Source: an uncultured Syntrophobacteraceae bacterium
Lineage (GTDB): Bacteria > Desulfobacterota > Binatia > UBA9968
Direction: 5' to 3'
Assembly: GCA_964404195.1 (NCBI GenBank)
Contig: CAYOJC010000001.1
Location: forward strand, 57,940-121,939
Length of the DNA stretch: 64,000 nucleotides
In this document: positions 776 to 18,896 of the stretch, piece by piece
Numbering within the stretch: position 1 is the stretch's first letter
Layout of the letters: each line of letters begins with the position of its first letter
Made by a program: the position numbers and the translations under genes
Notes under the pieces: generated by a model
The model's input: the letters and a program-made list of their open reading frames with translations, nothing else
Databases searched by the model: none
What the model was told of the DNA's origin: nothing

Positions 776-861
776 TACTTTTCTTATTTTGGTTGTGGCA
801 TTGCCGCGCTGGGCGCTTCGTGGTGAAAAGAACTTGAACCTGAAAAGTGGGAGACAGTCGA

Positions 862-3114
862 ATGGCGCATAAGGTTGTCGGGCGCTCGCTGCCCCGCGTC
901 GAGGGGGCGGCGAAGGTCAGCGGCGCGTTGAGTTACACGGCGGACATTCTTCGGCCCGGCTCTCTCTGGGGCAAAGTTCTGCGCAGCCCGCTGCCCCACG
1001 CGCGCATCCTTAATATAGATACCAGCCGGGCCATGAGCCTCCCCGGCGTGAAGGCGATCGTCACCGCCGCCGACATGAAAACGACGCTCGTCGGCGCGAC
1101 CTTGAGAGACATGCCGGTGATGGCGCGCGACCGCGTGCGCTTCGTCGGCGAGGAGATCGCCGCCGTCGCCGCCGTGGATGCCAACACGGCGGAAGAAGCG
1201 GTTGAATTGATCGACGTCGAATACGAAGATCTGCCGGCGGTTTTCGATCCGCTTGAGGCGATGAAGCCCGAGGCGCCCATCCTGCATCCGGATTACCCGA
1301 CTTATAAAGGACCGAAGACCATGGCGCTGGAACTCAAGAACGTCCAGACGCTCGTGCGCGGCCGGAAGGGCGAGATCGAAAAAGGCTTCGCCGAATCGGA
1401 TTTCATCTTCGAGAAAACTTATCGCACCCAGCTCGTGCACCAGGGCTACATCGAGCCTTACGCCTGCACGGTGGAAGTCGACGATCAGGGGCGCGTCGCC
1501 ATCTGGGTGGCGAACCAGGCGTTCTTCAAGCTCAGGCGCGTGCTGGCGGAATATTTGGAGCTTCCTCCGGAAGATATCACGATCTACCCAAGCAACATGG
1601 GCGGCTCGTTTGGCGCCAAAGATTTTCTGTTCCTGAATCCGGCGGCTTATTATCTCTCGAAAAAAACCGGCCGGCCCGTGCGCTTTGTGAAAAGCTACGG
1701 CGAAGAACTCGGAGCCACCACGCCGCGCCACTCCGCGGTGATCTCTCTCCGTGTCGGTGTAAAAAAGGACGGCCGCCTCTGGGCATGGGACGGAAAGACC
1801 TTCTACAACGGCGGCGCTTACGGCGCGTTCAAGCCCAACCCCAAAGGCTCGATGAGCGGCGCGTACATGGTCGCGGGCTCTTATAATATCCCCAACACGC
1901 GCCTCGAAGGGTATTGCGTTTACACCAATCAAGTCCCGTGCGGCTACTTCCGCGCGCCGGGGGAAGCCCAGACCCTGTTCGCGGTCGAAAGCCATATGGA
2001 CCTAATGGCCGAAGCGCTCGGCATGGATCCGATCGAGTTCCGCCGGCTGAACGCGCTGAAAGAAGGCGACACGCGCGCGACGGGCGAATCGCTGGAAGAT
2101 CCGCACTGCCTCGAAGTTCTCGATCGCGTGGCGAAAATTTCCGGATGGAAAAAGAAGCAAGCCAAAGCATCTGCCGAAAATAAATTAACCGGGCGCGGCG
2201 TGGCGCTCGGCGACCGCCACGTGGGCCACGGCGAGTCGAGCTTCGAATTGCTTCTCGAGCGCGGCGGAACGCTCCGGCTCTTGAGCGGCGTCGGTGATCA
2301 GGGGGTCGGCGCCTACACGATGCACCGCCAGGTCGCGGCCGAGCTGCTCGGAGTCAAGCCGGGCTTGATCGAGATCGAGGTCAGGGACACCTCCAACGCG
2401 CCATACGACCAGGGGATCAAGGGCGCCAGGGGGACGCACGTCGAGGGACAGGCGGTCGCGCGCGCGGCCGGCGCGTTGATCGACAATCTGCGTTCTCTCG
2501 CCGCGTCGCGATGGGGCGTGCCGGTCGAAAAGATTTCCTGGACCGATGGAGCCGCTCTCTTCAAAAACCACGGAAAAAGAAAAAAGCTGAGCTTGAAAGA
2601 ATTGGCGGGCCTTTCGGAAGCGCCGGTCAAGGGATTCGGCGAGTACACGGGACACAAGCCGCACGTCTATTCCTTTCAGGCGATCGTCGTCGACGCGGAG
2701 GTCGATCAGGAGACCGGCGCGGTCGAGTTGCAACACCTCTACTTCGTCTACGATGTCGGCACGATCATCAATCCGCTCAATCACCAGGGGCAGATCGAAG
2801 GCGGCATCGTCCAAGGCCTGGGCTACGCGCTGACCGAAGAGCTGAAAGTCGATGAAGGGCGCGTCACCACGGTGACGCTGGGCGATTACAAAATTCCCAA
2901 CATCGCCGACAATGTGCCGCTCACGACTTCGCTGGTTCAAGCGAAGGTCGGCCCCGGCCCGTTCGGCGCTAAGTCGGTGGCCGAGGCCGGAGTCAGCATC
3001 GTCGCGCCGGCGGTGGCGAACGCGGTCTACAACGCGACCGGCGTGCGGATCACTGAGCTGCCGGTCACCGCGGAAAAAATTATCGAGGGTCTCGCATGCC
3101 GTTCCAAAGTTTGA
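862..3114 (+). CDS. xanthine dehydrogenase/aldehyde oxidase-family molybdopterin-binding large subunit (copy 1)
   Basis: The protein is ~750 aa with an N-terminal a/b-hammerhead (RVEGAAKVSG..YTADI, LWGKVLRSPLPHARI) and the MoCo-domain motifs GGSFG, GYFRAPGE and GQGxxT. The ATG at 862 has a GGGAG RBS; the track start at 847 is a GTG. Confidence 0.85.
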   Translation: MAHKVVGRSLPRVEGAAKVSGALSYTADILRPGSLWGKVLRSPLPHARILNIDTSRAMSLPGVKAIVTAADMKTTLVGATLRDMPVMARDRVRFVGEEIAAVAAVDANTAEEAVELIDVEYEDLPAVFDPLEAMKPEAPILHPDYPTYKGPKTMALELKNVQTLVRGRKGEIEKGFAESDFIFEKTYRTQLVHQGYIEPYACTVEVDDQGRVAIWVANQAFFKLRRVLAEYLELPPEDITIYPSNMGGSFGAKDFLFLNPAAYYLSKKTGRPVRFVKSYGEELGATTPRHSAVISLRVGVKKDGRLWAWDGKTFYNGGAYGAFKPNPKGSMSGAYMVAGSYNIPNTRLEGYCVYTNQVPCGYFRAPGEAQTLFAVESHMDLMAEALGMDPIEFRRLNALKEGDTRATGESLEDPHCLEVLDRVAKISGWKKKQAKASAENKLTGRGVALGDRHVGHGESSFELLLERGGTLRLLSGVGDQGVGAYTMHRQVAAELLGVKPGLIEIEVRDTSNAPYDQGIKGARGTHVEGQAVARAAGALIDNLRSLAASRWGVPVEKISWTDGAALFKNHGKRKKLSLKELAGLSEAPVKGFGEYTGHKPHVYSFQAIVVDAEVDQETGAVELQHLYFVYDVGTIINPLNHQGQIEGGIVQGLGYALTEELKVDEGRVTTVTLGDYKIPNIADNVPLTTSLVQAKVGPGPFGAKSVAEAGVSIVAPAVANAVYNATGVRITELPVTAEKIIEGLACRSKV

Positions 3115-5750: not shown

Positions 5751-7184
5751 ATGCCGTTCCAAAGCCTAAGAGATTACCTCAAGAAGGTCGAAGAGCACGG
5801 CGATCTTCTTAAGATCGACGGCGCGTCCCGCGAGGAGGAGATCGGCGCGCTGGCGGAAATCGTCGCGAGCACGGCCAAGCACCCGATGCTGCTCTTTGAC
5901 AACATCAAAGGATACCCCGCGGGATATCGCGTTTCGGCCAGCACGATGGGCGGCGTGCGCCGGATGGCTCTCGGCCTCGGCTTGGACCCGTCGCTCGCCA
6001 ATGTCGAGCTGGTAAAGGCATGGAAAGAGAAGCTCAAGACGTTCAAGCGGATCGAGCCGCGCGAAGTCGCCGACGGTCCGGTGCGGGAAAATGTTTTCTC
6101 CGGCGAAAAAATTGACTTGCTCAAATTCCCCGCGCCGAAGTGGCACGAACGCGACGGCGGCTACTACATCGGCACCGGCTGCTGCGTGATCACGCGCGAC
6201 CCCGACGATGGCTGGGTCAACATGGGCGTCTATCGCGTCGTGGTCCACGATAAGAAAACTCTCGGGATTTTTATCAACCACATCCAGCACGGCCGGCTCA
6301 TCGTCGAGAAGTACTGGTCGCAAGGAAAAAGTTGCCCGGTGATTATCTCTTTCGGACAAGACCCCGCGCTTTTTCTCGCCGCCGCGCAGCGCGAGCCGTG
6401 GGGCGTGGGCGAGCTCGACGTCGCGGGATGGCTTCGCGGCGAGCCGGTGGAAATTCTGAAAGGCGAGAGGACGGGTCTGCCGATTCCCGCGCACGCGGAG
6501 ATCGTCGTCGAAGGAGAGATCCCTCCGATCGAGAAAGAAGCGCGGCCCGAAGGGCCGTTCGGCGAGCGCACGGGTTACTACGCGACCGGGACGAGAAACG
6601 AGCCGGTCGTCCGCGTGTCGTCGCTGATGCACCGCAACGATCCGATCATCCAGGGTGATCCGCCGCTGAAGCCGGTGCCCGGCATGGACCACTTCGGCAT
6701 CCCGCTGCCCGCGGCGGGTGTGTGGTCGGCGTTGGAATCCGCCGGCATTCAAGACATCCGCGGGGTCTGGCTGCACGGCCCGTTCGCGACGGTGATCTCG
6801 CTCAAGCAGCGCTACGAAGGCCACGCGCGCCAGGCGGCGGCGATCGCGCTCGGCGCGCGCGCCACGGTGCACCTCGGAAGATTCGTCATTCTTGTCGACG
6901 ATGATATTGACCCGTCGGATCTCAGCGACGTCTTCTGGGCGGTCACGACGCGCTGCGATCCGGCGGAGCAAACGGAAGTCTTGAAAGGATTTCCGACGAG
7001 CGGCATCAATCCGCGCGTCGCGCCGGCGGACCGTGAAGAGGGACACTTTGTCTCTTCCAAGATGATCATCGACGCGTGCCGGCCGTACCGTTGGATCAAG
7101 GATTTTCCGGCGACGAACGTCATGAGCCCGGAGCTGAAAACGAAAGTAGCGGAGAAGTGGAAGCGATTGCTGGAGCGGCAGTGA
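5751..7184 (+). CDS. UbiD-family decarboxylase (copy 2)
   Basis: 477 aa. The N-terminus MPFQSLRDYL…LLFDNIKGYPAGYR matches the canonical UbiD PALLFENPKGY region, and the full-length architecture fits the family. Confidence 0.85.
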   Translation: MPFQSLRDYLKKVEEHGDLLKIDGASREEEIGALAEIVASTAKHPMLLFDNIKGYPAGYRVSASTMGGVRRMALGLGLDPSLANVELVKAWKEKLKTFKRIEPREVADGPVRENVFSGEKIDLLKFPAPKWHERDGGYYIGTGCCVITRDPDDGWVNMGVYRVVVHDKKTLGIFINHIQHGRLIVEKYWSQGKSCPVIISFGQDPALFLAAAQREPWGVGELDVAGWLRGEPVEILKGERTGLPIPAHAEIVVEGEIPPIEKEARPEGPFGERTGYYATGTRNEPVVRVSSLMHRNDPIIQGDPPLKPVPGMDHFGIPLPAAGVWSALESAGIQDIRGVWLHGPFATVISLKQRYEGHARQAAAIALGARATVHLGRFVILVDDDIDPSDLSDVFWAVTTRCDPAEQTEVLKGFPTSGINPRVAPADREEGHFVSSKMIIDACRPYRWIKDFPATNVMSPELKTKVAEKWKRLLERQ

Positions 7185-7278
7185 GTTTTCCATGCCGGCG
7201 ACCGTGCCGCGCGAGGCATCGCGTCCGGCTTCAAGGACGAATTATACAAACAAGCCCCGTGAGAAGAATGCAAGGCCA

Positions 7279-9531
7279 ATGGATTTTCTGACGATCGGCC
7301 AGCCGGTCCCGCGCGTCGACGGCCCCGCCAAGGTGAGCGGCGCGTGCGTTTACACGGCCGACGTTCCCGGCGCGGGAACGCTGTGGGGAAAATTTTATCG
7401 CAGCCCGCTGCCGCACGCGCGCATCCTGAACGTCGATACGGGAAAAGCCAAGAAAGTTCCCGGCGTCAAAGCCGTGATCTCCGCCGGCGACGTGTCGCCG
7501 CGGCGCGAGGGCTACACGCTGCAGGACAAGCCGATCTTCGCGCGGAAAAAAGTTTTATATTGCGGGGAAAAGGTCGCGGGAGTCGCGGCCGTCGATAAGG
7601 ACGCGGCGGAAGAGGCCGTCGCGTTGATCGAAGTCGAGTACGAAGAGCTGCCGGCGGTGTTCGATCCGCTCGAGGCGATGAAACCGGAAGCGCCCCTGCT
7701 TCACCCCGACTATGCCTCCTACCTTGGGCCGCCGAGCATGGCGCCGGATCTGAAAAACGTCCAGAGCGTGATGCGCGCCGCCAAAGGCGACACCGCCAGA
7801 GGATTCGCGGAATCGGACGAGATTTTTGAAAACTCTTTTCGCACGCAGATGGTCCACCAGGGCTTCATCGAGCCGCGCGCGTGCCGGGTCGAGATCGACC
7901 GCGACGGACGGATCCAGGTCTGGTTTTGCCATCAATCGAGCTTCAAGGTCCGCCGCTGGATGGCGACGCACCTCGGAATTGCCGAGGAGAAAATCGTCGT
8001 CCATCCGGTCGCGCTCGGCGGCTCGTTCGGCGGCAAAGAAGGCTATGAGGAGGCGCTCTGCACCTATTACCTGGCCGCGGCCGCCGGCAAGCCGGTGAAA
8101 GTGGTGGATAGCTACGCCGAGGAGCTGCTCGACGGCGAGCCGCGCCACGCGGCGGTAATCCGGCTTGGCACCGGCGTGAAGCGGGACGGCCGGCTGTGGG
8201 CGTGGGAGGGAAAGATATTTTACAACGGCGGCGCCTACGCCGCGCGAAAGCCCAGCCCGAAGGCCAACATGAGCGGCACCTTCATGCTGGCGGGCTCGTA
8301 CAACATCCTGCATACGCTCATGGAAGGCTACGCGGTTTACACCAATCAAATACCGTGCGGCTACTTTCGCGCGCCGGGAGAGCCGCAGACGCTCTTCGCC
8401 GTCGAATCACACGTCGACATGATCGCCGAAACCTTGGGCATCGATCCGCTCGAGTTTCGCTTGAAGAACGTGTTGCGCGCGGGAGATACGAGGGCGACGG
8501 GGGAGCCGCTCGCCGATCCGCGCGGCGCGGAAGCGCTCAGCGAGCTGGGAAAAATTTCGGCCTGGAAAAAAACTTCTCTAAAACCGACGCGAGGCCGGAA
8601 GCTCCGCGGGCGCGGGCTCGCCCTCGGCGACCGCCACGTGGGCCACGGCGAGTCCAGCGCCGAGATTTATCTCGAGCGCGACGGCGCGGTGCGCCTCGTC
8701 ACTTCCGTGAGAGATCAGGGCGTCGGCGCTTACACGATGCATCGCCAGGTCGCGGCGGAAACGTTGGGCATCGAGCCGGAGCGCGTTCGGGTCGAGATCA
8801 AAGGGACGGCCGACGGTCCTTACGACGAGGGCGTCCGGGGCGCCCGCGGCGCGCACGTCGAAGGCCGTGCGGTGTTGCGCGCGGCCGAAAACTTAATCGC
8901 ATGTCTCCGAAAACAGGCCGCGGCGTACTGGAGAGTCGACGCCGGCAAGGTCGAGTGGCAAGCGGGCAAGGCGTGGTTGGCGAACGGCCGAAAATCCAAA
9001 AACCTCGGACTTAACGATCTGGCCCGCATGATCGAAGCGCCGCTCAAAGGCTACGGCCATTACAAGGCCGAGAAAAAACCTTCGGTCTATTCCTTTCAGG
9101 CGATCGCCGCAGACGTCGAAGTCGACGCCGAAACCGGCGCAGCGCGCGTCGCGAAGCTCTATTTTACTTACGACGTGACCAAAGTCATCAATCCGGTCAT
9201 TCACCAGGGACAGATCGACGGCGCGATCGTCCAGGGATTGGGCTATTCGTTGATGGAGGAAATGGCCGTGGACGAAGGGCGGGTGCTCACGCTGAGCCTC
9301 GGCGATTACAAGATACCCAACATCAAAGACGTTCCGCCCCTCGTCACTTCTCTGGTGCAAGCCAAAAAAGGGCCCGGACCTTTCGGCGTGAAGGCCGTGG
9401 CGGAAGCGGGCATCAGCATCGTCGCTCCCGCGATCGCCAACGCCGTTTACAACGCGACCGGCGTGAGAATCACGGAGCTGCCGGTCACGGCGGAAAAAAT
9501 TCTCGCCGGTCTGGCGCGTCTTTCTAAATGA
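7279..9531 (+). CDS. xanthine dehydrogenase-family molybdopterin-binding large subunit (copy 2)
   Basis: It is paralogous to 862..3114 (PRVDGPAKVSGACVYTADV…GYFRAPGEPQTLFAVESH). The ATG at 7279 is in frame; the track ORF was extended upstream. Confidence 0.85.
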   Translation: MDFLTIGQPVPRVDGPAKVSGACVYTADVPGAGTLWGKFYRSPLPHARILNVDTGKAKKVPGVKAVISAGDVSPRREGYTLQDKPIFARKKVLYCGEKVAGVAAVDKDAAEEAVALIEVEYEELPAVFDPLEAMKPEAPLLHPDYASYLGPPSMAPDLKNVQSVMRAAKGDTARGFAESDEIFENSFRTQMVHQGFIEPRACRVEIDRDGRIQVWFCHQSSFKVRRWMATHLGIAEEKIVVHPVALGGSFGGKEGYEEALCTYYLAAAAGKPVKVVDSYAEELLDGEPRHAAVIRLGTGVKRDGRLWAWEGKIFYNGGAYAARKPSPKANMSGTFMLAGSYNILHTLMEGYAVYTNQIPCGYFRAPGEPQTLFAVESHVDMIAETLGIDPLEFRLKNVLRAGDTRATGEPLADPRGAEALSELGKISAWKKTSLKPTRGRKLRGRGLALGDRHVGHGESSAEIYLERDGAVRLVTSVRDQGVGAYTMHRQVAAETLGIEPERVRVEIKGTADGPYDEGVRGARGAHVEGRAVLRAAENLIACLRKQAAAYWRVDAGKVEWQAGKAWLANGRKSKNLGLNDLARMIEAPLKGYGHYKAEKKPSVYSFQAIAADVEVDAETGAARVAKLYFTYDVTKVINPVIHQGQIDGAIVQGLGYSLMEEMAVDEGRVLTLSLGDYKIPNIKDVPPLVTSLVQAKKGPGPFGVKAVAEAGISIVAPAIANAVYNATGVRITELPVTAEKILAGLARLSK

Positions 9532-10589
9532 ACATGGCGGTCCTTAAACCCGAAGAGCATGAGCGGATGGTGATGGAGTCGGTCCGCTTCGCCAAGGAAG
9601 AAGCGAAGCGGCGGCAACAGGCACCGGTGCAGATCAAGGCCGAGGAGATCCGCGCGCAGTTCGAAACGAATTCCCATCTCTATCTCGTCGATCCGCGGTT
9701 GGGCTTCAATCACCGGACGTTTCGCTTCTGGATCAACCGCATCCCCGCGGGCGAGGAAGAGGGGATGGGCTGGAAGACGCTCGGCCACCGCCACACGGTC
9801 GAGGCGGTGCTCCACGTGCTGCAAGGAACCGGCCACAGCATCGTCGACGGCGCGCGCTACGACTGGGCGCCGGGCGATTTTATCAGCGTGCCGATGTTTT
9901 CCTGGCACCGCCACGTGAACACCGGCGACGAAGATTTTATTTATCTGGCGGCGACCACCGGCCCGCTGTCGTTGTCTCTCGGATTGGCGGTCTACGAAGA
10001 CGAGCGGTATCCGGACTATTGGGTCTTCGGCCACAAGAGCGAGAGCGCGATGAAGTCGCTGATCCCCGGCGCGGACGACAGCACGCGCGTGCGCACTGCC
10101 GAGGAGGCGTCGCGGGAGCCGCTGAGCCCGACGGACGCCTATTACCGGCAGCACCTGTTGTTTTCCGGCGGCGAGGAGAAGCGCCGCCGCCAAAGCCGGG
10201 TGCTGGTGAAAGGGGCTCAAGTCGATTTCGAAAAGACCGCCATGGGACGCGTCCGTTATGTGATCGATCCGCGGACGGGCTTTCTCATGCGCGTCCTGGG
10301 GACGCTGTTGGCCGAGATCTCTCCGGGAAAACGCTCCGGCGCGCACCGGCATATGTACGAAGAGGTGAATTATGTCCTTTCAGGGCGCGGCTACAGCCTG
10401 ATCGAAGATCGGAGATACGACTGGGCGGCAGGCGACGTTCTTTGTATTCCGGTCTTCGGTTGGCATCAGCACTTCAACACCGGCAAGGAGCCGGCGCGGC
10501 TGTTGGTCCATCACAACCGGCCGCTGATGGAAAATCTGGGCTTCATGCACGTCGAACAAGGCGAAGAAGCAGAGGAGGAATCCTTATGA
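9528..10589 (+). CDS. bicupin dioxygenase, gentisate 1,2-dioxygenase-like
   Basis: Two cupin modules each carry His motifs (GHRHTVEAVLHVLQGTG…SWHRHVN and GAHRHMYEEVNYVLSGRG…GWHQHFN). The start ATG overlaps the XDH stop (ATGA). Confidence 0.7.
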   Translation: MNMAVLKPEEHERMVMESVRFAKEEAKRRQQAPVQIKAEEIRAQFETNSHLYLVDPRLGFNHRTFRFWINRIPAGEEEGMGWKTLGHRHTVEAVLHVLQGTGHSIVDGARYDWAPGDFISVPMFSWHRHVNTGDEDFIYLAATTGPLSLSLGLAVYEDERYPDYWVFGHKSESAMKSLIPGADDSTRVRTAEEASREPLSPTDAYYRQHLLFSGGEEKRRRQSRVLVKGAQVDFEKTAMGRVRYVIDPRTGFLMRVLGTLLAEISPGKRSGAHRHMYEEVNYVLSGRGYSLIEDRRYDWAAGDVLCIPVFGWHQHFNTGKEPARLLVHHNRPLMENLGFMHVEQGEEAEEESL

Positions 10590-11572
10590 GACGGACTCTA
10601 TACGTCGGCTTGCTGGCGTTGTGTTTTCTCCCGCAGCAGGTTCTTGCGGCGGAACGGGCCCTGCGCGTCTCCTATCCGTCTCCCGCCACCGTTTACCTGC
10701 CGCTCTGGGCGGCGAAAGAGGCGGGCTTTTTCGCCAAGCACAAGCTGGCCGTAGAACTGGTCCATGTGGGATCGTCGCCCATATCCCTCTCGGCTTTCCT
10801 GGCCGGTGAGATCGATATCCTGGGCGGCGGCGGCTCGGCCGTACCCAACGCGTTTCTTCAGGGTTTCCGCGATCTCCAGTTTTTCGCCTCCATGAACAAC
10901 AAGTTTGTCTTCTCGATCTATGCCCATCCGTCCATTTCAACCGCGGCGGAGCTTCGCGGCAAGAAGATCGGCGTGACGCGCCTGGGCGGCACGATGCACT
11001 TTGCCACTCGGTATTACCTCAAAGGGACGGGACTCGATCCTTACAAAGATGTCACGCTGGTGCAGGTCGGGAGGGCCGAAGACATCGTCACGGCGCTAGC
11101 GGGAGGGACCGTCGATGCGGGCACCATGTCTTTTCCGTTCGATCTCAAGACCAAGGAGTTGGGATACCGCGAGCTTGCCGATCTGAGCCAGAGCGGCGCG
11201 CGCTACGCGTCGTCCTCCTTTCTCGGCAAAAAACAGTTTCTTTTGGACAACCGTCTGCGCTTGGAAAGTTTTGTCAAGGCGATGATCGAGGCGATCCATT
11301 TCGTCAAGAGCCGGCCCCAGGAGGCAATAAAAATCCTCTCCCGCTATACCCGCCTTACCGACGTCAATACTCTCAAGAGCACCTTAGACCTTCACGTCGC
11401 AAAGATCTGGCCGCGAGTGCCTGAGATACAGCCGGAGGATCTCAAGCTGGTACTCGAAGAGCTGGGCGAAAGAAACCCCCGCGCGCGCGAGATCGCGCCG
11501 GCCGAGCTGATCCACGACCGGATCGTGAGGGATGTCGTCCAATCGGGCTTTGTCGAGCAGTTGTACAGATAG
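10586..11572 (+). CDS. periplasmic substrate-binding protein, NMT1/THI5-like (NitT/TauT SsuA/TauA family), copy 1
   Basis: Signal peptide MRRTLYVGLLALCFLPQQVLAA, then LRVSYPSPATVYLPLWAAKEAGFF. GAGGAGG RBS. The start overlaps the bicupin stop (ATGA). The track ORF 10019.. is an antisense-free upstream extension. Confidence 0.75.
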   Translation: MRRTLYVGLLALCFLPQQVLAAERALRVSYPSPATVYLPLWAAKEAGFFAKHKLAVELVHVGSSPISLSAFLAGEIDILGGGGSAVPNAFLQGFRDLQFFASMNNKFVFSIYAHPSISTAAELRGKKIGVTRLGGTMHFATRYYLKGTGLDPYKDVTLVQVGRAEDIVTALAGGTVDAGTMSFPFDLKTKELGYRELADLSQSGARYASSSFLGKKQFLLDNRLRLESFVKAMIEAIHFVKSRPQEAIKILSRYTRLTDVNTLKSTLDLHVAKIWPRVPEIQPEDLKLVLEELGERNPRAREIAPAELIHDRIVRDVVQSGFVEQLYR

Positions 11573-11595
11573 AAGGGGGTCGTGAAAAGCTGGCC

Positions 11596-13038
11596 ATGAA
11601 CACGGATCTGCGAGACTGGATCGTTGCGGTACAAGCCACCGGTGAGATCAAGACGCTCAGCGGCGCAGACTGGAACAGAGAGATCGGCACGCTGGTTGAG
11701 CTCAACGCCAAGGCGCGTGGGCCGGCCCTGCTCTTCGACGAGATCAGGGGCTACCCGGCGGGCTTCAGGCTGCTGGCCGGGGCGATGTCGAGCGCCAGAA
11801 GACTCGCCCTGACGCTTGGGCTTCCGCCCGATCTCGATGGGCTCGAACTCATCCGTTGCATGAAAGACAGCATGCGCGGCTGGAACGACCGCCTGGGTGA
11901 TTTTCCGCCGGTAGAGGTTCAAAGCGGCGTCGTCTTTGAAAACGTGGATGCCGAGGAAAAGACCAATCTGTTAAAGTTTCCATCCCCGCTTTGGCACGAA
12001 GAGGACGGCGGGCGCTATATCGGCACAGGCTCGGTTGCCATCATGCGAGACCCGGAAAGCGGCTGGATCAATCTAGGCACCTACAGGATCATGGTTCACG
12101 ATGAAAAGAGCGCCGGCATCTTCATGGCACCCGGCCACCATGGCGGAATCATCATGAAGAAATACTGGAAAGCGGGCAAACCCTGCCCGATTGCCGTCTC
12201 CGCCGGCCATCACCCGCTGATTTTTTTTGCCGGATCTTCTTCGCTTCCCGCGGAGACTTCGGAATACAACTACGTCGGTTCCATTCTGAAGGAGTCGGTG
12301 CCGGTCGTGATGGGACCCGTCACCGGGCTTCCGATTCCGGCCTACAGCGAAGTCGCATTCGAAGGCCACCTTTTTCCCGACGAAATGAAAACCGAGGGAA
12401 TATTCGGCGAATGGCCCGGCTACTACGTGAGCGAGGCCAAGCCGGAGCCGGTCATCCGGGTCAAGGCCGTGTATCACCGAAACGATCCGATTCTGCTCGG
12501 CGCCTGGCCCGGAAAACCACCCCACGACAGCACTTACCGAAACTCGATCATAAAGTCTGCAAGCCTTTGGGAGCTTCTCGAACGAGCGCGCATTCATGGC
12601 GTCACCGGCGTTTATCGCCCGGAGGCCGGGAGCGCAAATCTTTTGACGATCGTCAGGATCAAGCAGCTCTACGACGGCCACGCCCGCCAGGTGGGAACCG
12701 TAGCTTCGCAGCTTCTCCATCCGTCACATTCCACCCGCTATGTCATCGTCGTCGATGACGGCCTCGACATCACCAATCTTGAGGAGGTGATGTGGGCGGT
12801 CTGCACGCGCAGCGACCCGGCGCGCTCGATCGCCATCATTGACCAGACCCACGCCAACGCTCTCGACCCGATGGTTCGCTCACGCTATGACAAAGCGGCC
12901 GGCAACACGGCTTCCTGCGCGATCATCGACGCCTGCTGGCCCTACCGCGCGCTTGCCAAAGTCCCCAAGGTCGCAGAGTCGAGCGAGGAGTTTAAAAAAC
13001 AGGTCAAAGCCAAGTGGAGAGGAAAACTGTCTCTGTAA
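11596..13038 (+). CDS. UbiD-family decarboxylase (copy 3)
   Basis: 480 aa. GPALLFDEIRGYPAGFR and a UbiD-like C-terminus (VIVVDDGLDITNLEEVMWAV). Confidence 0.85.
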   Translation: MNTDLRDWIVAVQATGEIKTLSGADWNREIGTLVELNAKARGPALLFDEIRGYPAGFRLLAGAMSSARRLALTLGLPPDLDGLELIRCMKDSMRGWNDRLGDFPPVEVQSGVVFENVDAEEKTNLLKFPSPLWHEEDGGRYIGTGSVAIMRDPESGWINLGTYRIMVHDEKSAGIFMAPGHHGGIIMKKYWKAGKPCPIAVSAGHHPLIFFAGSSSLPAETSEYNYVGSILKESVPVVMGPVTGLPIPAYSEVAFEGHLFPDEMKTEGIFGEWPGYYVSEAKPEPVIRVKAVYHRNDPILLGAWPGKPPHDSTYRNSIIKSASLWELLERARIHGVTGVYRPEAGSANLLTIVRIKQLYDGHARQVGTVASQLLHPSHSTRYVIVVDDGLDITNLEEVMWAVCTRSDPARSIAIIDQTHANALDPMVRSRYDKAAGNTASCAIIDACWPYRALAKVPKVAESSEEFKKQVKAKWRGKLSL

Positions 13039-13052
13039 GCCGTTCTTTTTTA

Positions 13053-14246
13053 TCAGGTATGTTCTTTCTGGAGGAACCAATCGGTGGGGATCTCGTGGCC
13101 CAGCTCCAGGCGACGCGCGCCGGCGAGAATCCGCGCGCCGGTCGCCGCATGCTGGATGCCGAGGCCGATGTTGTTACAGTGAAAGGTGATCTCATCGTCC
13201 TTTCTCCTACCCTTGATTTTTCCCGTCAGCAGCTCGCCGAGCTCGTGCATCGAGGCCCAGTCGAGCTGCCGCGATTTTTTGTTGATGTTGCTCCCGACCG
13301 TATCCATCTTCTTCCCCATGACGAAGTCGCGCACCAGATCGCTCCCGCCGGAGAAGGGGCGCGCGTTGACGACGATGAGATCGCTGATCTTAAAGCTCGC
13401 CGCGTCCGCCTCGACGATGTTGATGCTGCCGAAATGCGCGCCTTCCTCGATCCAGCGCGCGCGAAAGACCGGCGTCAGAGAGGTCGTGGCGCTCAACACA
13501 ATTTCCGAACCGGGGCAAACGTCTTGCGGCTTATCGACTGGAACGATCTCGATTCCCGTGGCCCGCTCCATGCTGGCGGCGAAGGCTTTGCGGTGGCCGG
13601 CGTTGGGGCTGAACACTTTGACGCGCTTAAGCTTTCTCACCAGAGCGGCCGCCATCACCTGGCCCTCGGCCTGGAAACCAGTGCCAAAAAGGCCCAGCGT
13701 CTGAGCCTCCTTTCGCGCCAGGTGCTTGATCCCGACGGCGGAAGTCGCCGCCACGCGGTTTCTCTGCAGCGGTCCGAGCGGCAGAATGGCGAGCAGCTCG
13801 CCGCTTACGATATCGAAGAGAAGCATCATGCCCGTGTAGCGCCAGCCCGATCCAAGTGGCAGCTTTACGCTCCGCTTGACGCCGTTGACGACGGGGTTGG
13901 TGTCCGTCGTCGAGTCGATTTTCAGCGCCATGATGCCGCACTTCGGATAGCCGCCCGGAATGGTCTTGAGCCGATAGTTCAGCTCCTCGGTTCGCTTGGC
14001 GGCGCGAACCCACAGAGGGGACTGATGCGGATCGGCGTCGACCGGGAGATCGCGCAGCAGTTTCTTTGCCTTTCGGCTGACCTCAGCGGAAGCGCCGTAT
14101 TTGAGAAGCGGAATGCCGGTCTCGGTGCGCGGCGCGTTGATCGCCGCTCCTTTGCCCAACTCCGTGAAGGCCTCTTCCATCGCCTCGATGTAGCCCTTGA
14201 GATCCAGGGCCCGCAGGACCTCTTCCGTATTCAAGACCAGCGTCAT
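13053..14246 (-). CDS. ornithine cyclodeaminase/mu-crystallin family protein
   Basis: Rossmann motif LGLFGTGFQAEGQV and OCD-family architecture (~397 aa). It is the only minus-strand gene in the first 25 kb. The overlapping + ORF 13014..14390 is an R-rich artefact. Confidence 0.75.
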   Translation of the reverse strand: MTLVLNTEEVLRALDLKGYIEAMEEAFTELGKGAAINAPRTETGIPLLKYGASAEVSRKAKKLLRDLPVDADPHQSPLWVRAAKRTEELNYRLKTIPGGYPKCGIMALKIDSTTDTNPVVNGVKRSVKLPLGSGWRYTGMMLLFDIVSGELLAILPLGPLQRNRVAATSAVGIKHLARKEAQTLGLFGTGFQAEGQVMAAALVRKLKRVKVFSPNAGHRKAFAASMERATGIEIVPVDKPQDVCPGSEIVLSATTSLTPVFRARWIEEGAHFGSINIVEADAASFKISDLIVVNARPFSGGSDLVRDFVMGKKMDTVGSNINKKSRQLDWASMHELGELLTGKIKGRRKDDEITFHCNNIGLGIQHAATGARILAGARRLELGHEIPTDWFLQKEHT

Positions 14247-14352
14247 TTTGCCCCCGCCGGACGATTTTCCCGGTTTAAGATTTTTTCGTTTTCGCCGACC
14301 GGCTTTTTTATAGGCCAGCCTGGTCGGAAAGACAACCGATCTATTGACCGAT

Positions 14353-14428
14353 GCCGGCGCGGCTGTTGGTCCATCACAACCGGCCGCTGATGGAAAATCT
14401 GGGATTCATGCACGTCGAACAAGGCGAA
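14353..14428 (+). repeat. 76-bp remnant of the bicupin 3' end (75/76 identical to 10491-10566)
   Basis: Direct comparison of gccggcgcggctgttggtccatcacaaccggccgctgatggaaaatctggg[c/a]ttcatgcacgtcgaacaaggcgaa. It lies immediately upstream of NMT1-like SBP copy 2, in the same position as the intact bicupin relative to copy 1. Confidence 0.8.
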
Positions 14429-14435
14429 TCGAGCG

Positions 14436-15431
14436 ATGATTAAAATAACATTGTTTTTGCTCTACATGATTTTTCTACTCGCGCGCGCGGATATCTCCCT
14501 CGCGCAGAAGCGGCCGCTGCGGGCTTCTTATCCGGCGCCGACCACCGTGTATCTCCCTCTTTGGGTCGCCAAGGACGCAGGTTTTTTCACCAAGCAGGGC
14601 GTCGATGTCGAGCTGGTTCACGTCGGTTCTTCTCCGATCGCCATGGCCGCGTTTTTGGCCGGGGAGATCGACATCCTGGGCGGCGGCGGCTCGAGCGGCC
14701 CCAATGCCTATCTCAGGGGACAGCGCGACCTGGCGTTTTTCGTTTCGATGAACAACAAATTTGTCTTTTCCATCTATGGCCCACCGACGATGGCGAATCT
14801 GTCCGCCGTGCGCGGCAAGCGCATCGGCGTGACGCGCTTCGGCGGGACCATGGACTTCGCCACGCGCCATTTCCTGCGGCTCAGCGGGCTCGATCCCGCG
14901 CGCGACGTGGCGATGGTCCAGGTCGGCAGGGTGCAGGATATTCTGTCGGCGATGGCGGCGGGCTCGGTGGACGTCGGCACGATGGCGTTTCCCTACGATA
15001 TTAAAGCGAGGGAGAGCGGCTATCGCGAGCTCGCCGATCTCGCGCAGAGCGGAGCGCGTTACGCTTCGTCGTCTTTTTTGGGGAAGCGGCAATTTCTCGC
15101 GCAGCAGAAGCCCCGCATCGAGTCGTTCGTGCGTGGACTGATCGAGGCGATTCACTTTATCCGGACGCGGCGCGACGAAGGCATAAAAATTCTCGCGCGC
15201 TATACGCGCATGTCGGATATGAACATCCTGCAGCAGACCTACGATTTCCACAGCAGGGTGATCTGGCCCCGGGTGCCGGAGCTGCAGCCCGAGGATCTGA
15301 AGCTCGTCCTGGAAGAACTGGCGGACGCCAACCCCAAGGCGCGCGAGATCGATCCCGCGGAGCTGATTTACGGCGCCGCAATAAAAGACGTGGTCGCGAG
15401 CGGATTCGTCGAGAAGCTTTATGCGCGGTGA
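14436..15431 (+). CDS. NMT1/THI5-like periplasmic substrate-binding protein, copy 2
   Basis: Paralog of 10586..11572 (LRASYPAPTTVYLPLWVAKDAGFF…GGGGSSGPNAY). Confidence 0.75.
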   Translation: MIKITLFLLYMIFLLARADISLAQKRPLRASYPAPTTVYLPLWVAKDAGFFTKQGVDVELVHVGSSPIAMAAFLAGEIDILGGGGSSGPNAYLRGQRDLAFFVSMNNKFVFSIYGPPTMANLSAVRGKRIGVTRFGGTMDFATRHFLRLSGLDPARDVAMVQVGRVQDILSAMAAGSVDVGTMAFPYDIKARESGYRELADLAQSGARYASSSFLGKRQFLAQQKPRIESFVRGLIEAIHFIRTRRDEGIKILARYTRMSDMNILQQTYDFHSRVIWPRVPELQPEDLKLVLEELADANPKAREIDPAELIYGAAIKDVVASGFVEKLYAR

Positions 15432-16430
15432 GTTAAAGAAGGGCCCGCGAATCGCCTGGCTGCTTCTCTTGATCTGGATCGGGCCGATTCCAGCGAACGG
15501 CGCCGTTGCGCCGGCGCCGCTGCGGGTTTCGTACCCGGCGCCGACGGCTTCTCAGCTTCCTCTCTGGGTGGCCAAAGAATGGAAATTTTTCGACAAACAC
15601 GGCGTAGGCGTCGAGCTCGTCTACGTCGGCTCGTCGTCCATCGCCATCGCCGCGCTCTTAGCGGGAATCTGGACGTCGTCGCCGGCGGCGGGGTCGGCGG
15701 CATCGCCTCTTACCTGCAGGGCTATCGCGACCTGGCGCTCTTCGCCAGCTTGAACAACCGCTTGAATTTTTTCGTCTACGCGCATCCCTCGATCACAGAT
15801 CCGTCCGGACTTCGCGGCAAGCGGTTCGGCGTCAGCCGCTTCGGCGGCGTCGGCGATTTCGCGGCGCGTTATTTCTTGAAGCGCTCGGGTCTCGATCCGC
15901 GTAAGGACCTGGCCATGATCCAGGTGGGCAGCCAGTTGGAATTGACTCCGGCGCTGGCGCGCGGCGCCGTCGACGCGGGCACCGTATCGGTGCCGCAGAA
16001 CTTTGCAGCCAAGAAGCTGGGCTATCGAGAGCTGGCCGACTTGACGCAGAGCGGCGCGCGATACGCCTCGAACGCTTTTTTGGCCAAGAAGCAATTCCTC
16101 ATCGACAACAGAGCGCGCATGGAAACTTTCCTGCGGGCCGTGATCGAATCGATCCATTTCATTAAAACGCGCCGGCCGGAGGCTTTGAGCGTCCTCGCCC
16201 GTTATACGAGAACGAACGACACGGAAGCTTTGGGTTTGATTTACGACGAATACGTCCACAAGGTCTGGCCGCAGATCCCTGGAATCGAGCCCGAAGATTT
16301 GAAGGCGGTCTTTGAACAGCTGGGGGAAACCAATCCTAAAGCGCTGGAAGTCAATCCCGCCGAGCTGGTGTACGCGCCGCTCATGGATAATGTGGTCAAG
16401 TCGGGTTTTGTGAAGGAACTTTACCGCTGA
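15421..16430 (+). pseudogene. NMT1/THI5-like substrate-binding protein, copy 3, disrupted by a -1 frameshift near 15666
   Basis: Frame 1 (15421..15753) carries the N-terminus and frame 3 (15579..16430) the rest. Restoring one A in gggaa(a)tctg gives LLAGNLDVVAGGGVGGIASYLQGYRDL, which is collinear with the paralogs. This may be a true pseudogene or a homopolymer sequencing error. Confidence 0.6.
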
Positions 16431-17434
16431 TGGGAAGAACGCGAGTCATCGCCGCGATCATTTTTGCTTGGATCGCGATTGCCGCGGGCGGCGCGAGCGG
16501 CGCCGCTGCGCCGGCTTCTCTGCGCATCGCCTACCCGGCGCCGACCGCTTCTTTTCTTCCGCTCTGGACGGCCCAGGACGCAGGGTTTTTCAAGAAGCAC
16601 GATCTCGCGGTGGAAGTGATCCGGGTCGGATCCTCGACCCGCGGCATGGCCGCTTTGCTCGCGGGCCAGATCGACGTGCTCGCGGGCGGCGGCACCGGCG
16701 GCCTGGTGGCGCAGTTGCAAGGCTTCACCGATCTCGCGGTCTTCGGCACCAACGTGCATACTTGGGTGTTTTCGGTCTACACGGCGCCGTCGATCAAAGA
16801 CGTCGCGCAGCTCCGCGGCAAGAAGTTGGGCGTGACCCGGTTCGGCGGGACTATGGATTTCGCGGCGCGCCACTTTCTCAAAGGACAGGGGTTAGAGCCG
16901 GGGAAGGACGTCGTTCTGGTTCAGCTCGGCAGCGCGGCGGACATCGTCACCGCTTTGGCCAACGGAGTCGTCGATTCCGGGATGATGTCGGTCCCTTATG
17001 TGTTCGTCGCAAAAAGGTTGGGACTCCGGGAGCTGACCGATCTCTCCCAAACCGGGATACGCTACGCGCAGGCGGCGCTGGTTGCGAAGAGAAGTTTTCT
17101 GCGCGACAAACGGGAAGTTGTGACTCGGTTTATCAAGTCGCAGATCGAGGCGATTCATTTTTTAAAGACGCGTCCGGCCGACGGCATGCGCGTCCTGGGC
17201 CGCTATACGCGAACCGATGACGAGGAAATTTTGAAGCAGGCGTACCATTACCACGTGGACCGGCTGCTCTCGCGCGTTCCCGACATTCATCCGGACGATG
17301 TCAGATTATTGTTGGAGGAAGCCGCGCTCACCAATCTCAAAGCCAAGGGCGCGAATCCGCAGGATTTCATCGACGAGGGACCGGTGCGCGAAGTCGTGCG
17401 CTCCGGCTTCGTCGAGCAGCTTTACAAGAAATAA
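16430..17434 (+). CDS. NMT1/THI5-like periplasmic substrate-binding protein, copy 4
   Basis: LRIAYPAPTASFLPLWTAQDAGFF. The start overlaps the copy-3 stop (TGATG). Confidence 0.75.
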   Translation: MGRTRVIAAIIFAWIAIAAGGASGAAAPASLRIAYPAPTASFLPLWTAQDAGFFKKHDLAVEVIRVGSSTRGMAALLAGQIDVLAGGGTGGLVAQLQGFTDLAVFGTNVHTWVFSVYTAPSIKDVAQLRGKKLGVTRFGGTMDFAARHFLKGQGLEPGKDVVLVQLGSAADIVTALANGVVDSGMMSVPYVFVAKRLGLRELTDLSQTGIRYAQAALVAKRSFLRDKREVVTRFIKSQIEAIHFLKTRPADGMRVLGRYTRTDDEEILKQAYHYHVDRLLSRVPDIHPDDVRLLLEEAALTNLKAKGANPQDFIDEGPVREVVRSGFVEQLYKK

Positions 17435-17465
17435 CTTTGCGCGGGTAGTTTCCGAGGAGGAGACC

Positions 17466-18896
17466 ATGGATGACTTGAGAGCTTGGTTGAAAGAGATAGA
17501 CGCGCTGGGTCAACTGAAGCAGGTGAACGGCGCGTCAACGAACCTGGAGATCGGCGTGATCACGGAGATCAACGGACAGCGGAGGGGCCCGGCGCTTTTG
17601 TTCGACAACATACCGGGCTTTCAAAAAGGTTTCAGGATTTTGTCCGGTTCGAGCCTCAACGCCAAGAGGCTCGCCTTGACGCTCGGCTTCCGCGACATCG
17701 ACACCGACCGGCAGCTCATCTCGCGCCTCGAAGGAAAGATGAGCGAGTTCGAGCGCAAGGCGCGGGATTATCCCACGAAGGACGTTTCGAGCGGCTCCGT
17801 CTTGCAGAATCGACTTTCCGAGCAGCAAGTCGATCTGCTGAAATTTCCCGCGCCCAAGTGGCACGAGCACGACGGCGGCAACTATCTCGGCACGGGCTGC
17901 ATCGTCGTCACCAAGGATCCCGACAGCGGCAGGATCAACTTCGGGTCGTACCGGCTGATGGTGCAGGATAAAAAAACCGTCACGCTGCACATTTCTCCGG
18001 CGCATCACGGCGCGATCAACGTGAGAAAATATCACGAGCGCGGGGAAGCCGCGCCGGTCGCCGTTTCGTTAGGCCACCATCCGCTCTATCTCATCATCTC
18101 GGGCATGGGGATTTCCTACGGCATTTCGGAATACGAATATTTCGGCGCGGTGACGGGGGAATCCGCTGCGGTGATTCGCGGTGAGGCGACGGGATTGCCG
18201 ATTCCGGCGGCGAGCGAGATCGCCTTCGAAGGTTTCTGTCCTCCCGGCGAGTTGCGCGAAGAGGGGCCTTTCGGCGAATATACCGGCTACTATGCATCGG
18301 GCCGGGGCAAAGAGCCGATCATCGACGTCAAGGCGGTCTACCACAGGGACGATCCGATTATCCTCGGCGTGCCGCCGGGACGTCCGCCGCACGACTACTC
18401 TTACGCCAGCGTGCTGATGAAATCCGTCAACGTCAAAGAGTCGCTCGTCAAAGACGGCATCCCGGACGTCAAAGGCGTGTGGTTTCACGAGGCGGCCGGT
18501 GTGAATTTTTTCGGCGTCGTGTCCATACGCCAGAGATATCCCGGTCACGCGCGCCAGGCGGGCCACGTCGCGGCGCAGTGCCAGGCGGCGGGAAATCACC
18601 TGGGCCGCTACATCGTCGTCGTGGACGACGATATCGATCCGACGGATCTGAATGAAGTCATCTGGGCGATCGGAACCAGGTCCAATCCGGAAAAGGATAT
18701 CGACTTGATCCGCAACACCTACACGAGCCCGCTCGATCCGATCTATTCCAGGGAGAAAAAAGGCGGCTTCGGCACTCGCGCGGTCATCGATGCCTGCAAG
18801 CCCTACGATTGGATCAACGAATTTCCCAAGGTCGCGTCGACGAGCGCGGAGGAAAGAAAAAAAGTGCTGACGAAGTGGAAACAGCTCTTCGAATAG
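17466..18896 (+). CDS. UbiD-family decarboxylase (copy 4)
   Basis: MDDLRAW…GPALLFDNIPGFQKGFR. GAGGAGGA RBS. The track ORF 17298.. is an upstream extension. Confidence 0.85.
   Translation: MDDLRAWLKEIDALGQLKQVNGASTNLEIGVITEINGQRRGPALLFDNIPGFQKGFRILSGSSLNAKRLALTLGFRDIDTDRQLISRLEGKMSEFERKARDYPTKDVSSGSVLQNRLSEQQVDLLKFPAPKWHEHDGGNYLGTGCIVVTKDPDSGRINFGSYRLMVQDKKTVTLHISPAHHGAINVRKYHERGEAAPVAVSLGHHPLYLIISGMGISYGISEYEYFGAVTGESAAVIRGEATGLPIPAASEIAFEGFCPPGELREEGPFGEYTGYYASGRGKEPIIDVKAVYHRDDPIILGVPPGRPPHDYSYASVLMKSVNVKESLVKDGIPDVKGVWFHEAAGVNFFGVVSIRQRYPGHARQAGHVAAQCQAAGNHLGRYIVVVDDDIDPTDLNEVIWAIGTRSNPEKDIDLIRNTYTSPLDPIYSREKKGGFGTRAVIDACKPYDWINEFPKVASTSAEERKKVLTKWKQLFE

Follow-up and report, generated by a model that had tools for sequence, protein, structure and literature searches.

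A repeated bicupin gene end in a mosaic-like Binatia catabolic locus and its probable origin by recombination

The bicupin locus and its repeat

The window, i.e., the whole 64,000-nt stretch of an uncultured Binatia bacterium's DNA analyzed here, includes a locus with genes of only four Pfam families (Cupin_2, NMT1, UbiD, and OCD_Mu_crystall), and no polymorphic toxin or immunity genes were found among the Pfam assignments there. The features of the locus are as follows:

9528–10589, plus strand: bicupin gene, gentisate 1,2-dioxygenase-like, 353 aa, intact (Pfam Cupin_2, two matched stretches)
10490–10565, plus strand: R1, first copy of the 76-nt repeat
10566–14352, no strand assigned: separating segment of 3,787 bp, consisting of the B-type tail, SBP1, UbiD-b, OCD, and the OCD spacer (gene order in relatives, Pfam)
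10586–11572, plus strand: SBP1, NMT1/NitT-TauT-type substrate-binding protein of the rare SBP1 type (Pfam, homologues)
11596–13038, plus strand: UbiD-family decarboxylase "b", UbiD-b (Pfam)
13053–14246, minus strand: ornithine cyclodeaminase/mu-crystallin (OCD) gene, 397 aa (Pfam, homologues)
14247–14352, no strand assigned: native upstream spacer of OCD, common to the related locus L050
14351–14443, plus strand: remnant ORF of 30 codons, M-PARLLVHHNRPLMENLGFMHVEQGE-SSDD* (translation)
14353–14428, plus strand: R2, second copy of the repeat
14353–14359, plus strand: GCCGGCG, 7-nt microhomology at the junction of the spacer and the bicupin 3′ end (comparison with L050)
14436–15431, plus strand: SBP2, native downstream neighbor of the bicupin (Pfam, gene order in relatives)

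Several bicupin homologues are labeled gentisate 1,2-dioxygenase at JGI. They are 348–350 aa long and most end with ...VEQGE[SAWC]S[DN]E/D, like the GESSDD* of the remnant ORF, while the window bicupin has the minority B-type tail ...VEQGEEAEEESL*, its TGA overlapping the ATG of SBP1 (ATGA). SBP2 is followed by SBP3 (frameshifted), SBP4, and UbiD-c, in the same order as in the relatives. The first-pass annotation had described the OCD gene as lying in the intervening space on the opposite strand; the gene is indeed on the minus strand, but SBP1 and the UbiD gene, which share that space, had been left out.

R1 and R2 are direct copies, R2 lying 3.9 kb downstream, with 75 of 76 positions identical, the sole mismatch being C at 10541 against A at 14404. 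They are the only sites of the repeat in the window with up to 3 mismatches allowed, and chance is ruled out as its source, with 0 matches expected from 100 dinucleotide-preserving shuffles. A one-mismatch repeat of the bicupin 3′ region at 14353–14428 had already been noticed, but its first copy was placed one base off: 10491–10566 compared with 14353–14428 base by base without offset gives 55 mismatches. Nor are these the last 25 codons of the gene, as first described. R1 consists of the last base of codon 321 and codons 322–346 (PARLLVHHNRPLMENLGFMHVEQGE) of 353, after which the reading frame continues for 7 further codons (EAEEESL) to the stop. The distance from the end of R2 to the ATG of SBP2 (14436) is 7 nt, and that from the end of R1 to the ATG of SBP1 (10586) is 20 nt. 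The ATG of the remnant ORF is supplied by the spacer, and its TAA overlaps the start of SBP2 by 8 nt, as the bicupin and SBP genes do in the relative P0001. There is no visible Shine-Dalgarno sequence before this ATG, which makes expression of the remnant ORF as such improbable.

L002 and L011, two JGI contigs from separate assemblies, are roughly 0.3–1% different from the window outside a few divergent patches, and each has both copies with identical boundaries and its own SNPs. The structure is real, and the repeat is no product of faulty assembly.

Two alternative gene ends in related loci

About 17 related loci have one bicupin (72–93% identical) with an SBP2-type gene directly after it and do not contain the 3,787-bp segment. 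The 50-kb contig of the closest relative, in which SBP1, UbiD-b, and OCD are missing, is colinear with the window on either side. In 18 metagenome loci, the repeat is followed by T[CG][GC]AG[CT][GA]ATGA, which agrees with the DNA after R2 and not with that after R1. The right flank of R2, TCGAGCGATGA, is the post-repeat DNA (...GESSD[DE]*) of the related loci, and the corresponding sequence of L055, CCGAGCGATGA, matches it closely. The direct succession of bicupin and SBP2-type gene and the matching post-repeat DNA in the relatives argue that R2 is the native bicupin end, displaced yet still joined to its native neighbor SBP2. Indeed, R2 with SSDD* lies downstream of the segment, attached to SBP2 with the 8-nt overlap kept. 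Two parts of the earlier description were thereby borne out: R2 is a true bicupin 3′ fragment, and it stands where the bicupin natively stands relative to SBP2. No second bicupin was found at this locus in the relatives (about 40 loci), and no second repeat copy outside the window, L002, and L011, the other fetched repeat-bearing loci giving one match each at up to 22 mismatches. The displaced end is a single one, confined to the window population, with no array of several orphan ends.

The bicupin gene body is conserved, while its tail and the linked downstream gene differ by lineage. The common tail, ...GESSD[DE]*, is found at about 17 loci in front of an SBP2-type gene. The rare one, ...GEEAEE(ESL/GAP)*, precedes an SBP1-type gene in the window, L045, L072, and L073, and SBP1-type proteins are rare. 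Since the adjacency of this tail and SBP1 recurs in the latter three loci at 80–95% DNA identity, the arrangement after R1 reads as an old, rare alternative and not a recent one. L045 has the junction of repeat, tail, and SBP1 but not R2, UbiD-b, or OCD. Its divergence from the window is about 5% in the tail and SBP1 and about 16% in the bicupin, the similarity being 84% before the repeat and 95% after it. Derivation of L045 from a window-type locus by deletion through SBP1/SBP3 recombination found no support, its SBP1 3′ end being SBP2-like (VVASGFVERLYGK) and not SBP3-like.

The SBP1 gene of the window is chimeric, with a breakpoint near 11481–11496. Positions 10566–11480 are 95.2% identical to L045, as opposed to 72% for 11481–11566; the latter stretch is about 92% identical to L055, which has this 3′ end in front of UbiD-b. 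Because SBP1 is itself chimeric, at least two recombination events would be required at the locus. The UbiD-b/OCD pair has other neighbors elsewhere (L050; L052, directly after UbiD-a; and L055). SBP1 and SBP2 share 66% of their protein sequence, about 71% of their DNA, and 42% of third codon positions, i.e., these are saturated. If the remnant were as old as the SBP1/SBP2 split, one mismatch or none in 76 nt would have a probability of about 1e-10. Taken together, the SBP1/SBP2 divergence, the single-bicupin relatives, and the old tail-plus-SBP1 type identify the locus, on sequence comparison, as a mosaic in which two old alternative versions are placed in tandem. Exact-protein look-ups with SBP2, the bicupin, OCD, SBP1, UbiD-c, and SBP4 returned the same arrangement or nothing; as no conspecific empty-site or donor genome was found, the polarity was inferred by parsimony from more distant lineages.

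The junction, its age, and the origin of the arrangement

The left edge of R2 was compared with L050, the one reference relative for the state of the spacer before the junction. Window and L050 are 94% identical in DNA across UbiD-b, OCD, and the spacer, and colinear up to 14359–14362. The motif GCCGGCG is common to the native spacer of L050, which then reads on as GGGAGACTATCATG, and to the start of the repeat, since it also begins R1 (10490–10496); across the window, the heptamer occurs about 8e-4 times per position and strand. Past GCCGGCG, a -10 element of its own and another SBP gene follow in L050. The spacer carries TTGACC at 14344–14349, and L050 has TTGACC-N17-TATCAT (10/12 match), while no promoter-like site was predicted in the window at 14150–14550, in front of SBP2. 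By this comparison, the left edge of R2 is a putative illegitimate junction at GCCGGCG which cuts a promoter-like site intact in L050, and the alignment shows its apparent -10 element to have been removed by the junction. The upstream regions in the other OCD contigs (L052, L053, and L054) are unrelated to the OCD spacer of the window, and the spacer-to-R2 junction shares only 7–10 nt with any alternative path.

The lineage-specific CGGCTGTTG (Arg-Leu-Leu) is present in R1 as well as in R2. Most other lineages show Arg-Phe-Leu there; L055 also has Arg-Leu-Leu, in different codons. The copies differ from each other at 1 of 76 positions, and L012, L013, and L045 differ from them at 6–8 of 76, which dates the event, by sequence divergence, as much younger than the 6–16% split from the nearest other lineages. 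The recency proposed by the first-pass annotation thus stands relative to the other divergences at the locus, whereas its "ongoing homogenisation" is not required, nor is it clearly demonstrated. Because L045 shares the junction of repeat, tail, and SBP1 despite its divergence of about 5%/16%, the near-identity of the copies could understate the age of the arrangement, conversion having kept them alike.

The explanation we favor, at a probability of roughly 0.75, is that a 3.8-kb module recombined in between the bicupin and its native neighbor and displaced the native 3′ end. The ancestral, common state would have been a bicupin (...VEQGESSD[DE]*) overlapping the start of an SBP2-type gene, then SBP3, SBP4, and UbiD-c. 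Behind bicupin codon 346, the module would have brought in the alternative tail, SBP1, UbiD-b, OCD, and the OCD spacer, parts which are all found in other arrangements in related Binatia. The spacer would have been joined illegitimately to the bicupin at GCCGGCG, 76 nt upstream of the point where the tails diverge, so that the last 76 nt of the shared bicupin sequence are present twice. The right end of the repeat would be no new junction but the old point at which the two tail-plus-SBP versions lose homology. The event was presumably homology-assisted and could have proceeded by illegitimate recombination facilitated by homology, by one crossover involving a circular intermediate, or by a template switch in repair or replication. 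The bicupin remains intact, with a different tail. SBP2, SBP3, SBP4, and UbiD-c, in comparison, would be uncoupled from bicupin transcription and translation and now lie behind a spacer whose promoter-like site has lost its -10 element. Moreover, the 76-bp direct repeats bracket the 3.8-kb module and could mediate its loss or amplification.

The first-pass annotation had instead proposed that a [bicupin]-[SBP] cassette was recently duplicated in place and its second bicupin later deleted down to a 76-bp scar. This reading, including the variant of a two-bicupin tandem trimmed between GCCGGCG sites, accounts for a bicupin 3′ end before each of two paralogous SBP genes, and a microhomology-mediated deletion would produce a junction no different from that of a direct illegitimate join. 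It is nevertheless unlikely: a unit duplicated at one time should not combine a remnant that is 99% identical (75 of 76) with SBP genes at 66% protein and about 71% DNA identity and saturated synonymous sites. Furthermore, the tails after R1 and R2 are two old alternative types; the second "cassette" runs into SBP3, SBP4, and UbiD-c exactly like the single cassette of the relatives; none of about 40 related loci has two bicupins or an intermediate state; and nothing points to a complete second bicupin at 14353 in the past. A mis-assembly of two co-occurring strains or alleles through the shared 76 bp, which the same annotation had allowed for, is hardly credible. The source is metagenomic, the locus has several natural arrangements, and Logan contigs, built with k = 31, do break at the repeat: contigs from several SRA runs begin or end at 10511, 14374, and 14382, which are the first or last unique 31-mers given the repeat and its single mismatch. 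However, such contigs cross the spacer-to-R2 junction (to 14382) in several runs, L002 and L011, from other samples, share both junctions with the window and each carry both copies with strain-specific SNPs, and the 7–10 nt shared by spacer and bicupin are too short for a false de Bruijn join.

A rearrangement that occurred no later than the split from the L045 lineage, with its copies held near-identical by repeated gene conversion, would agree with the R-tail-SBP1 junction shared with L045 at 5–16% divergence, with frequent recombination of SBP paralogues at the locus, and with the derived A at repeat position 52, present in every R2 copy and in R1 of L002. Yet L045 is without R2, UbiD-b, and OCD, and the remaining variants of the three strains each occur in a single copy (position 6 of R2 in L002, position 64 of R1 in L011, and position 73 of R1 in L002). 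The R1 of L002 lies within a 600-bp imported patch, which explains its changes without conversion, and a 76-bp tract is near the lower limit for efficient RecA-dependent conversion; we therefore consider this history quite improbable. Conservation of the 76 nt for a function in the SBP2 leader (RNA structure, small protein, or regulatory site) is very unlikely, even though the 30-codon ORF has an ATG and a stop overlapping the SBP2 start. The RNA fold is no more stable than that of shuffled sequences (z = 0.30), no Rfam match was found in 9000–19000, the ORF is without a visible Shine-Dalgarno sequence, and recency explains the identity of R1 and R2, the strains differing in R2 at the background rate. 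A mobile element that integrated site-specifically into the bicupin 3′ end, bringing a replacement end and leaving an attL/attR-like duplication, would fit the discrete 3.8-kb segment between direct repeats and the target gene kept intact with a new tail. It has next to nothing else in its favor, since no integrase, transposase, or excisionase is present in the segment, where SBP1, UbiD-b, and OCD fill 10586–14246 and leave no room for one; the left junction falls inside a native spacer/promoter common to L050, and the GC content (about 0.57–0.63) is similar to that of the flanks.

Comparison with known 3′-end displacements

Module recombination with displacement of the native end resembles processes known from other loci. 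In rhs loci, the C-terminal "tips" are displaced, for which homologous recombination with circular intermediates was proposed (Jackson et al., 2009; PMC2935791). Here as there, a conserved 5′ body gains an alternative 3′ end with linked genes, and the old 3′ end with its linked gene is pushed downstream with a short core stretch in front (PMC2935791). In contrast to the toxin tips and immunity genes of rhs, the genes concerned here encode a bicupin dioxygenase and binding proteins, a decarboxylase, and OCD; there is one displaced end and no array; and the displaced piece is almost all conserved core (76 nt) plus 4 tail codons. Displacement of T6SS effectors in Vibrio cholerae leaves orphan immunity genes and 3′ effector ends, and homology-facilitated illegitimate recombination was proposed as its route (Kirchberger et al., 2017; PMC5361080). 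The common points are an incoming module with a conserved upstream anchor and a non-homologous end joined illegitimately, and an ancestral downstream gene which is kept but moved back, in some cases along with the 3′ end of the former gene (PMC5361080). However, the present locus has no competitive or immunity logic, and the anchor side is not assignable.

Homology-facilitated illegitimate recombination is known from experiments in Acinetobacter, S. pneumoniae, P. stutzeri, and E. coli conjugation (PMC3240628; references in PMC5361080). It has one homologous and one illegitimate end, the latter corresponding here to the 7-nt match GCCGGCG. As opposed to the experiments, in which recipient DNA is usually deleted, 76 nt are duplicated here, and the process itself is not directly visible in sequence. 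Such illegitimate joins typically involve a few GC-rich matching bases. Prophages and islands that integrate into a gene 3′ end also duplicate it, e.g., e14 or phage 21 in the icd gene of E. coli. The likeness lies in the gene left intact with a slightly changed end, the displaced 3′ fragment at the far side of the insert, and the flanking direct repeats; the difference is that no mobile-element gene is present here and that a native promoter region holds the junction.

We regard the arrangement as an ordinary scar of bacterial gene shuffling, a new case of the known 3′-end displacement by illegitimate recombination, which leaves general concepts unchanged. It is an unlikely, more far-reaching possibility that the Binatia bicupin-SBP locus is a hotspot of module exchange, with rhs/T6SS-like 3′-end displacement acting on catabolic genes and the 76-nt end functionally retained. 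If so, alternative transport and decarboxylase modules would replace one another downstream of a conserved dioxygenase gene, and the 76-nt end would serve as a ribosome-binding leader of SBP2, a 30-codon coupling ORF, or a recombination handle for module loss or amplification. Read as an ordinary scar, the locus is a cleanly resolved case with an outgroup "empty site" and a pre-junction reference sequence. It illustrates how a catabolic cluster in uncultured soil/sediment Binatia may be rebuilt by homologous and microhomology-mediated recombination among paralogous binding-protein genes, and it corrects the tempting misreading of near-identical fragments as a recent cassette duplication. The 76-bp direct repeat also deserves attention in practice, as assemblies with short k break at it and it may cause the three-gene module to be lost or amplified.

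The 76-nt repeat in the assemblies

A 76-nt sequence stands twice in the window in the same orientation, as R1 (10490–10565) and R2 (14353–14428); the copies are identical at 75 of 76 positions, with the sole mismatch a C at 10541 versus an A at 14404. No match of this kind was found in 100 shuffles of the window, and similarity drops abruptly at both sides beyond the 76 nt. R1 covers codons 322–346 of the 353-codon bicupin (gentisate 1,2-dioxygenase-like) ORF, and R2 ends 7 nt before the start codon of SBP2, an NMT1-type substrate-binding protein gene. The pair of near-identical bicupin 3′ sequences described in the first-pass annotation is thereby confirmed, also in two other contigs (below), albeit with its first interval shifted by one base; R1 is not the last 25 codons of the gene as proposed there, since seven more codons (EAEEESL) and the stop follow it. 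The OCD gene, said to fill the space between the copies, is indeed there, together with SBP1 and UbiD-b, making three genes. The layout of the locus is as follows.

Gene layout around the repeat (window positions)
5751–7184, UbiD-a, UbiD-family decarboxylase
7192–9531, molybdenum hydroxylase large subunit
9528–10589, bicupin, containing R1
10586–11572, SBP1 (NMT1 type)
11596–13038, UbiD-b
13053–14246, minus strand, OCD (ornithine cyclodeaminase/mu-crystallin family)
14247–14352, spacer, 106 nt
14353–14428, R2
14436–15431, SBP2
about 15421–16430, SBP3 (frameshifted)
16430–17434, SBP4
17466–18896, UbiD-c

Mis-assembly as the source of the second copy was not borne out. Logan contigs of several SRA runs span either R1 to R2 or R2 to UbiD-c. 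They end at 10511, 14374 and 14382, where, with k = 31 as used by Logan, the repeat with its one mismatch leaves the first or last 31-mer that is unique. Moreover, both copies occur with the same boundaries and their own SNPs in two JGI contigs from other samples, L002 (Ga0364934_0002409) and L011 (Ga0210377_10002773); apart from a few divergent patches, these are ~0.3–1% different from the window. With no more than 7–10 nt in common between spacer and bicupin, the spacer-to-R2 junction is not a false join made by an assembler. Short patches of 4–11% divergence between these otherwise near-identical strains (L011 at 6575–6873 and 7174–7473; L002 at 8074–8373 and 10174–10773, window positions) resemble tracts brought in from other lineages by homologous recombination.

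The native bicupin end and the segment between the copies

Bicupin homologues are numerous in uncultured Binatia, and nearly all are 348–350 aa long and end in ...VEQGE[SAWC]S[DN]E/D. The short ORF holding R2 ends in ...VEQGESSDD, the intact bicupin of the window in ...VEQGEEAEEESL. In the closest relative (92% identical; contigs of 50 and 28 kb), the gene order is UbiD, Mo-hydroxylase, bicupin, SBP, SBP, SBP, UbiD, cupin, SBP_bac_5, cupin, Mo-hydroxylase, colinear with the window minus SBP1, UbiD-b and OCD; the 8-nt overlap between its bicupin and the SBP gene that follows recurs between the R2-containing ORF and SBP2. Among 39 metagenome loci, an SBP2-type gene comes directly 3′ of the bicupin in ~17 whose sequence extends far enough downstream. 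The sequence 3′ of the repeat is TCGAGCGATGA or a close variant in 18 loci, matching that after R2 and unlike that after R1; a Binatia MAG locus, L055, reads CCGAGCGATGA at the same place. Judged from these relatives' post-repeat sequence and SBP2-type neighbor, R2 and its right flank are the original end of the bicupin, still in its original surroundings, so the earlier view that R2 is a genuine piece of bicupin at its native site holds.

Comparison with related loci indicates that the segment between R1 and R2 was pieced together from modules that already existed. L045, L073 and L072 also have the EAEEE-type tail with an SBP1-type gene behind it, at 80–95% DNA identity; this combination is old and rare, an alternative to the SSD[DE] tail with SBP2. 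(The L072 sequence, ENA contig ERZ27280116 k141_3970503, ends at about 1140–1198 in an Illumina adapter, AGATCGGAAGAGCACACGTCTGAACTCCAGTCAC.) The module of UbiD-b, OCD and spacer has other neighbors elsewhere: in L050 (94% DNA identity) the next genes are an SBP gene of another kind (NMT1_3 type) and then an SBP4-like gene; in L052 the UbiD-b/OCD part comes directly after UbiD-a; and in L055 UbiD-b follows an SBP2-like gene sharing its last ~25 codons with SBP1 of the window. SBP1 itself is chimeric, being 95% identical to L045 (also L073) up to 11480 and from 11481 only 72% identical to these but ~92% to L055, which has this 3′ end in front of UbiD-b; the recombination breakpoint lies within 11481–11496. 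OCD in L055 is reduced to a 41-codon C-terminal fragment (L055 11459–11581) between UbiD-b and SBP4, another deletion scar at the same locus.

Junctions, age and possible mechanism

L050 and the window match throughout the OCD spacer as far as ...CTATTGACCGAT GCCGGCG, after which L050 reads GGGAGACTATCATG... and the window CGGCTGTTGG..., that is, bicupin sequence. The same heptamer, whose frequency in the window is ~8e-4 per position and strand, also opens R1. With the heptamer at both the divergence point and the R1 start, R2 was evidently joined illegitimately on its left side, at a GC-rich microhomology of 7 nt. On its right, the repeat does not end at a new junction but where the two old tail types stop being homologous. 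In L050, the junction spot lies between the hexamers of a good sigma-70-like site, TTGACC-N17-TATCAT (10/12), pointing to the downstream SBP gene. The window keeps the −35 hexamer (14344–14349) with the −10 replaced by TGGTCC, and no promoter-like site was predicted at its junction.

The first-pass annotation explained the two copies by a recent duplication of a [bicupin]-[SBP] cassette. This core of the interpretation is rejected, as SBP1 and SBP2 share 66% protein, ~71% DNA and 42% third-codon-position identity versus 75/76 in the repeat; the probability that a neutral scar as old as their split would be 75/76 identical is about 1e-10. Deletion of a second bicupin down to a scar is neither needed nor supported. 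The proposed recency of the event, on the other hand, stands: the copies differ at 1 of 76 positions from each other versus 6–8 of 76 from the nearest other lineages (L012, L013, L045). Both copies carry CGGCTGTTG (Arg-Leu-Leu), whereas most homologues have Arg-Phe-Leu and L055 encodes Arg-Leu-Leu with different codons, which traces the two to a single bicupin allele of this lineage. Ongoing homogenization was the alternative offered in the first-pass annotation. Variants in the three strains (window, L002 and L011) are mostly private to one copy; the exception is repeat position 52, with A in every R2 copy and in the R1 of L002, which sits within a 600-bp imported patch. A single recent event appears to fit these variants better than long-term homogenization.

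The signature is a junction at a microhomology on one side, a boundary where homology ends on the other, and 76 duplicated nucleotides; neither mobile-element genes nor a compositional anomaly were found in the segment. It may reflect a homology-assisted illegitimate event, for which homology-facilitated illegitimate recombination, single-crossover integration of a circular intermediate, or template switching in repair or replication are candidates. A single crossover via a circular intermediate has been proposed for rhs tips (PMC2935791). The outcome follows the same pattern as C-terminal displacement in rhs loci (PMC2935791) and displacement of T6SS effector-immunity modules (PMC5361080), here as a single event in a catabolic cluster. 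The locus is a further example of an already known kind of recombination scar.

Downstream genes and paralogous surroundings

As a consequence, the bicupin would stay intact with an alternative tail, while SBP2, SBP3, SBP4 and UbiD-c would be uncoupled from it behind a spacer whose promoter-like site is broken. The stretch in front of the SBP2 start codon is presumably still the native one, supplied by R2. R2 also yields a 30-codon ORF (14351–14443) with an ATG from the spacer and no visible Shine-Dalgarno sequence; R2 showed no significant RNA structure (z = 0.30), and no Rfam match was found in 9000–19000. SBP3 is frameshifted near 15665–15672, leaving ORFs for its N-terminal (15421–15753) and C-terminal (15579–16430) parts. 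L013 has the gene intact; the frameshift recurs in two Logan assemblies, with the same 283-aa call. L011 (about 8848–9860) is without window positions 15574–16473, which fuses the SBP3 signal peptide in frame to SBP4. Both changes are compatible with relaxed selection downstream. In L012 (3741–3997 versus window 15548 and 17177), the SBP array seems to skip from the beginning of SBP3 to the end of SBP4, representing either a further deletion between paralogues or a contig chimera.

The wider region has three paralogous Mo-hydroxylase large-subunit genes (847–3114, 7192–9531 and 23141–25390) and a duplicated, inverted cupin/SBP_bac_5 block (19.1–21.9 kb versus 25.5–28.3 kb), which, with three UbiD and four NMT1-type SBP genes, make up a highly paralogous aromatic-acid-type catabolic island. 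A 39-nt inverted repeat (20244–20282/27040–27078; 95% complementary) adjoins two SBP_bac_5 paralogues whose genes are only 71–78% alike; it could be a regulatory or leader element that has been conserved. Finally, about 52000–64000 contains internally repeated units of ~2 kb (repeat families D1, D3, D8–D10 and D20); a motif in the D20 sequence prompted the tentative guess that they may be nonribosomal peptide synthetase-like modules.
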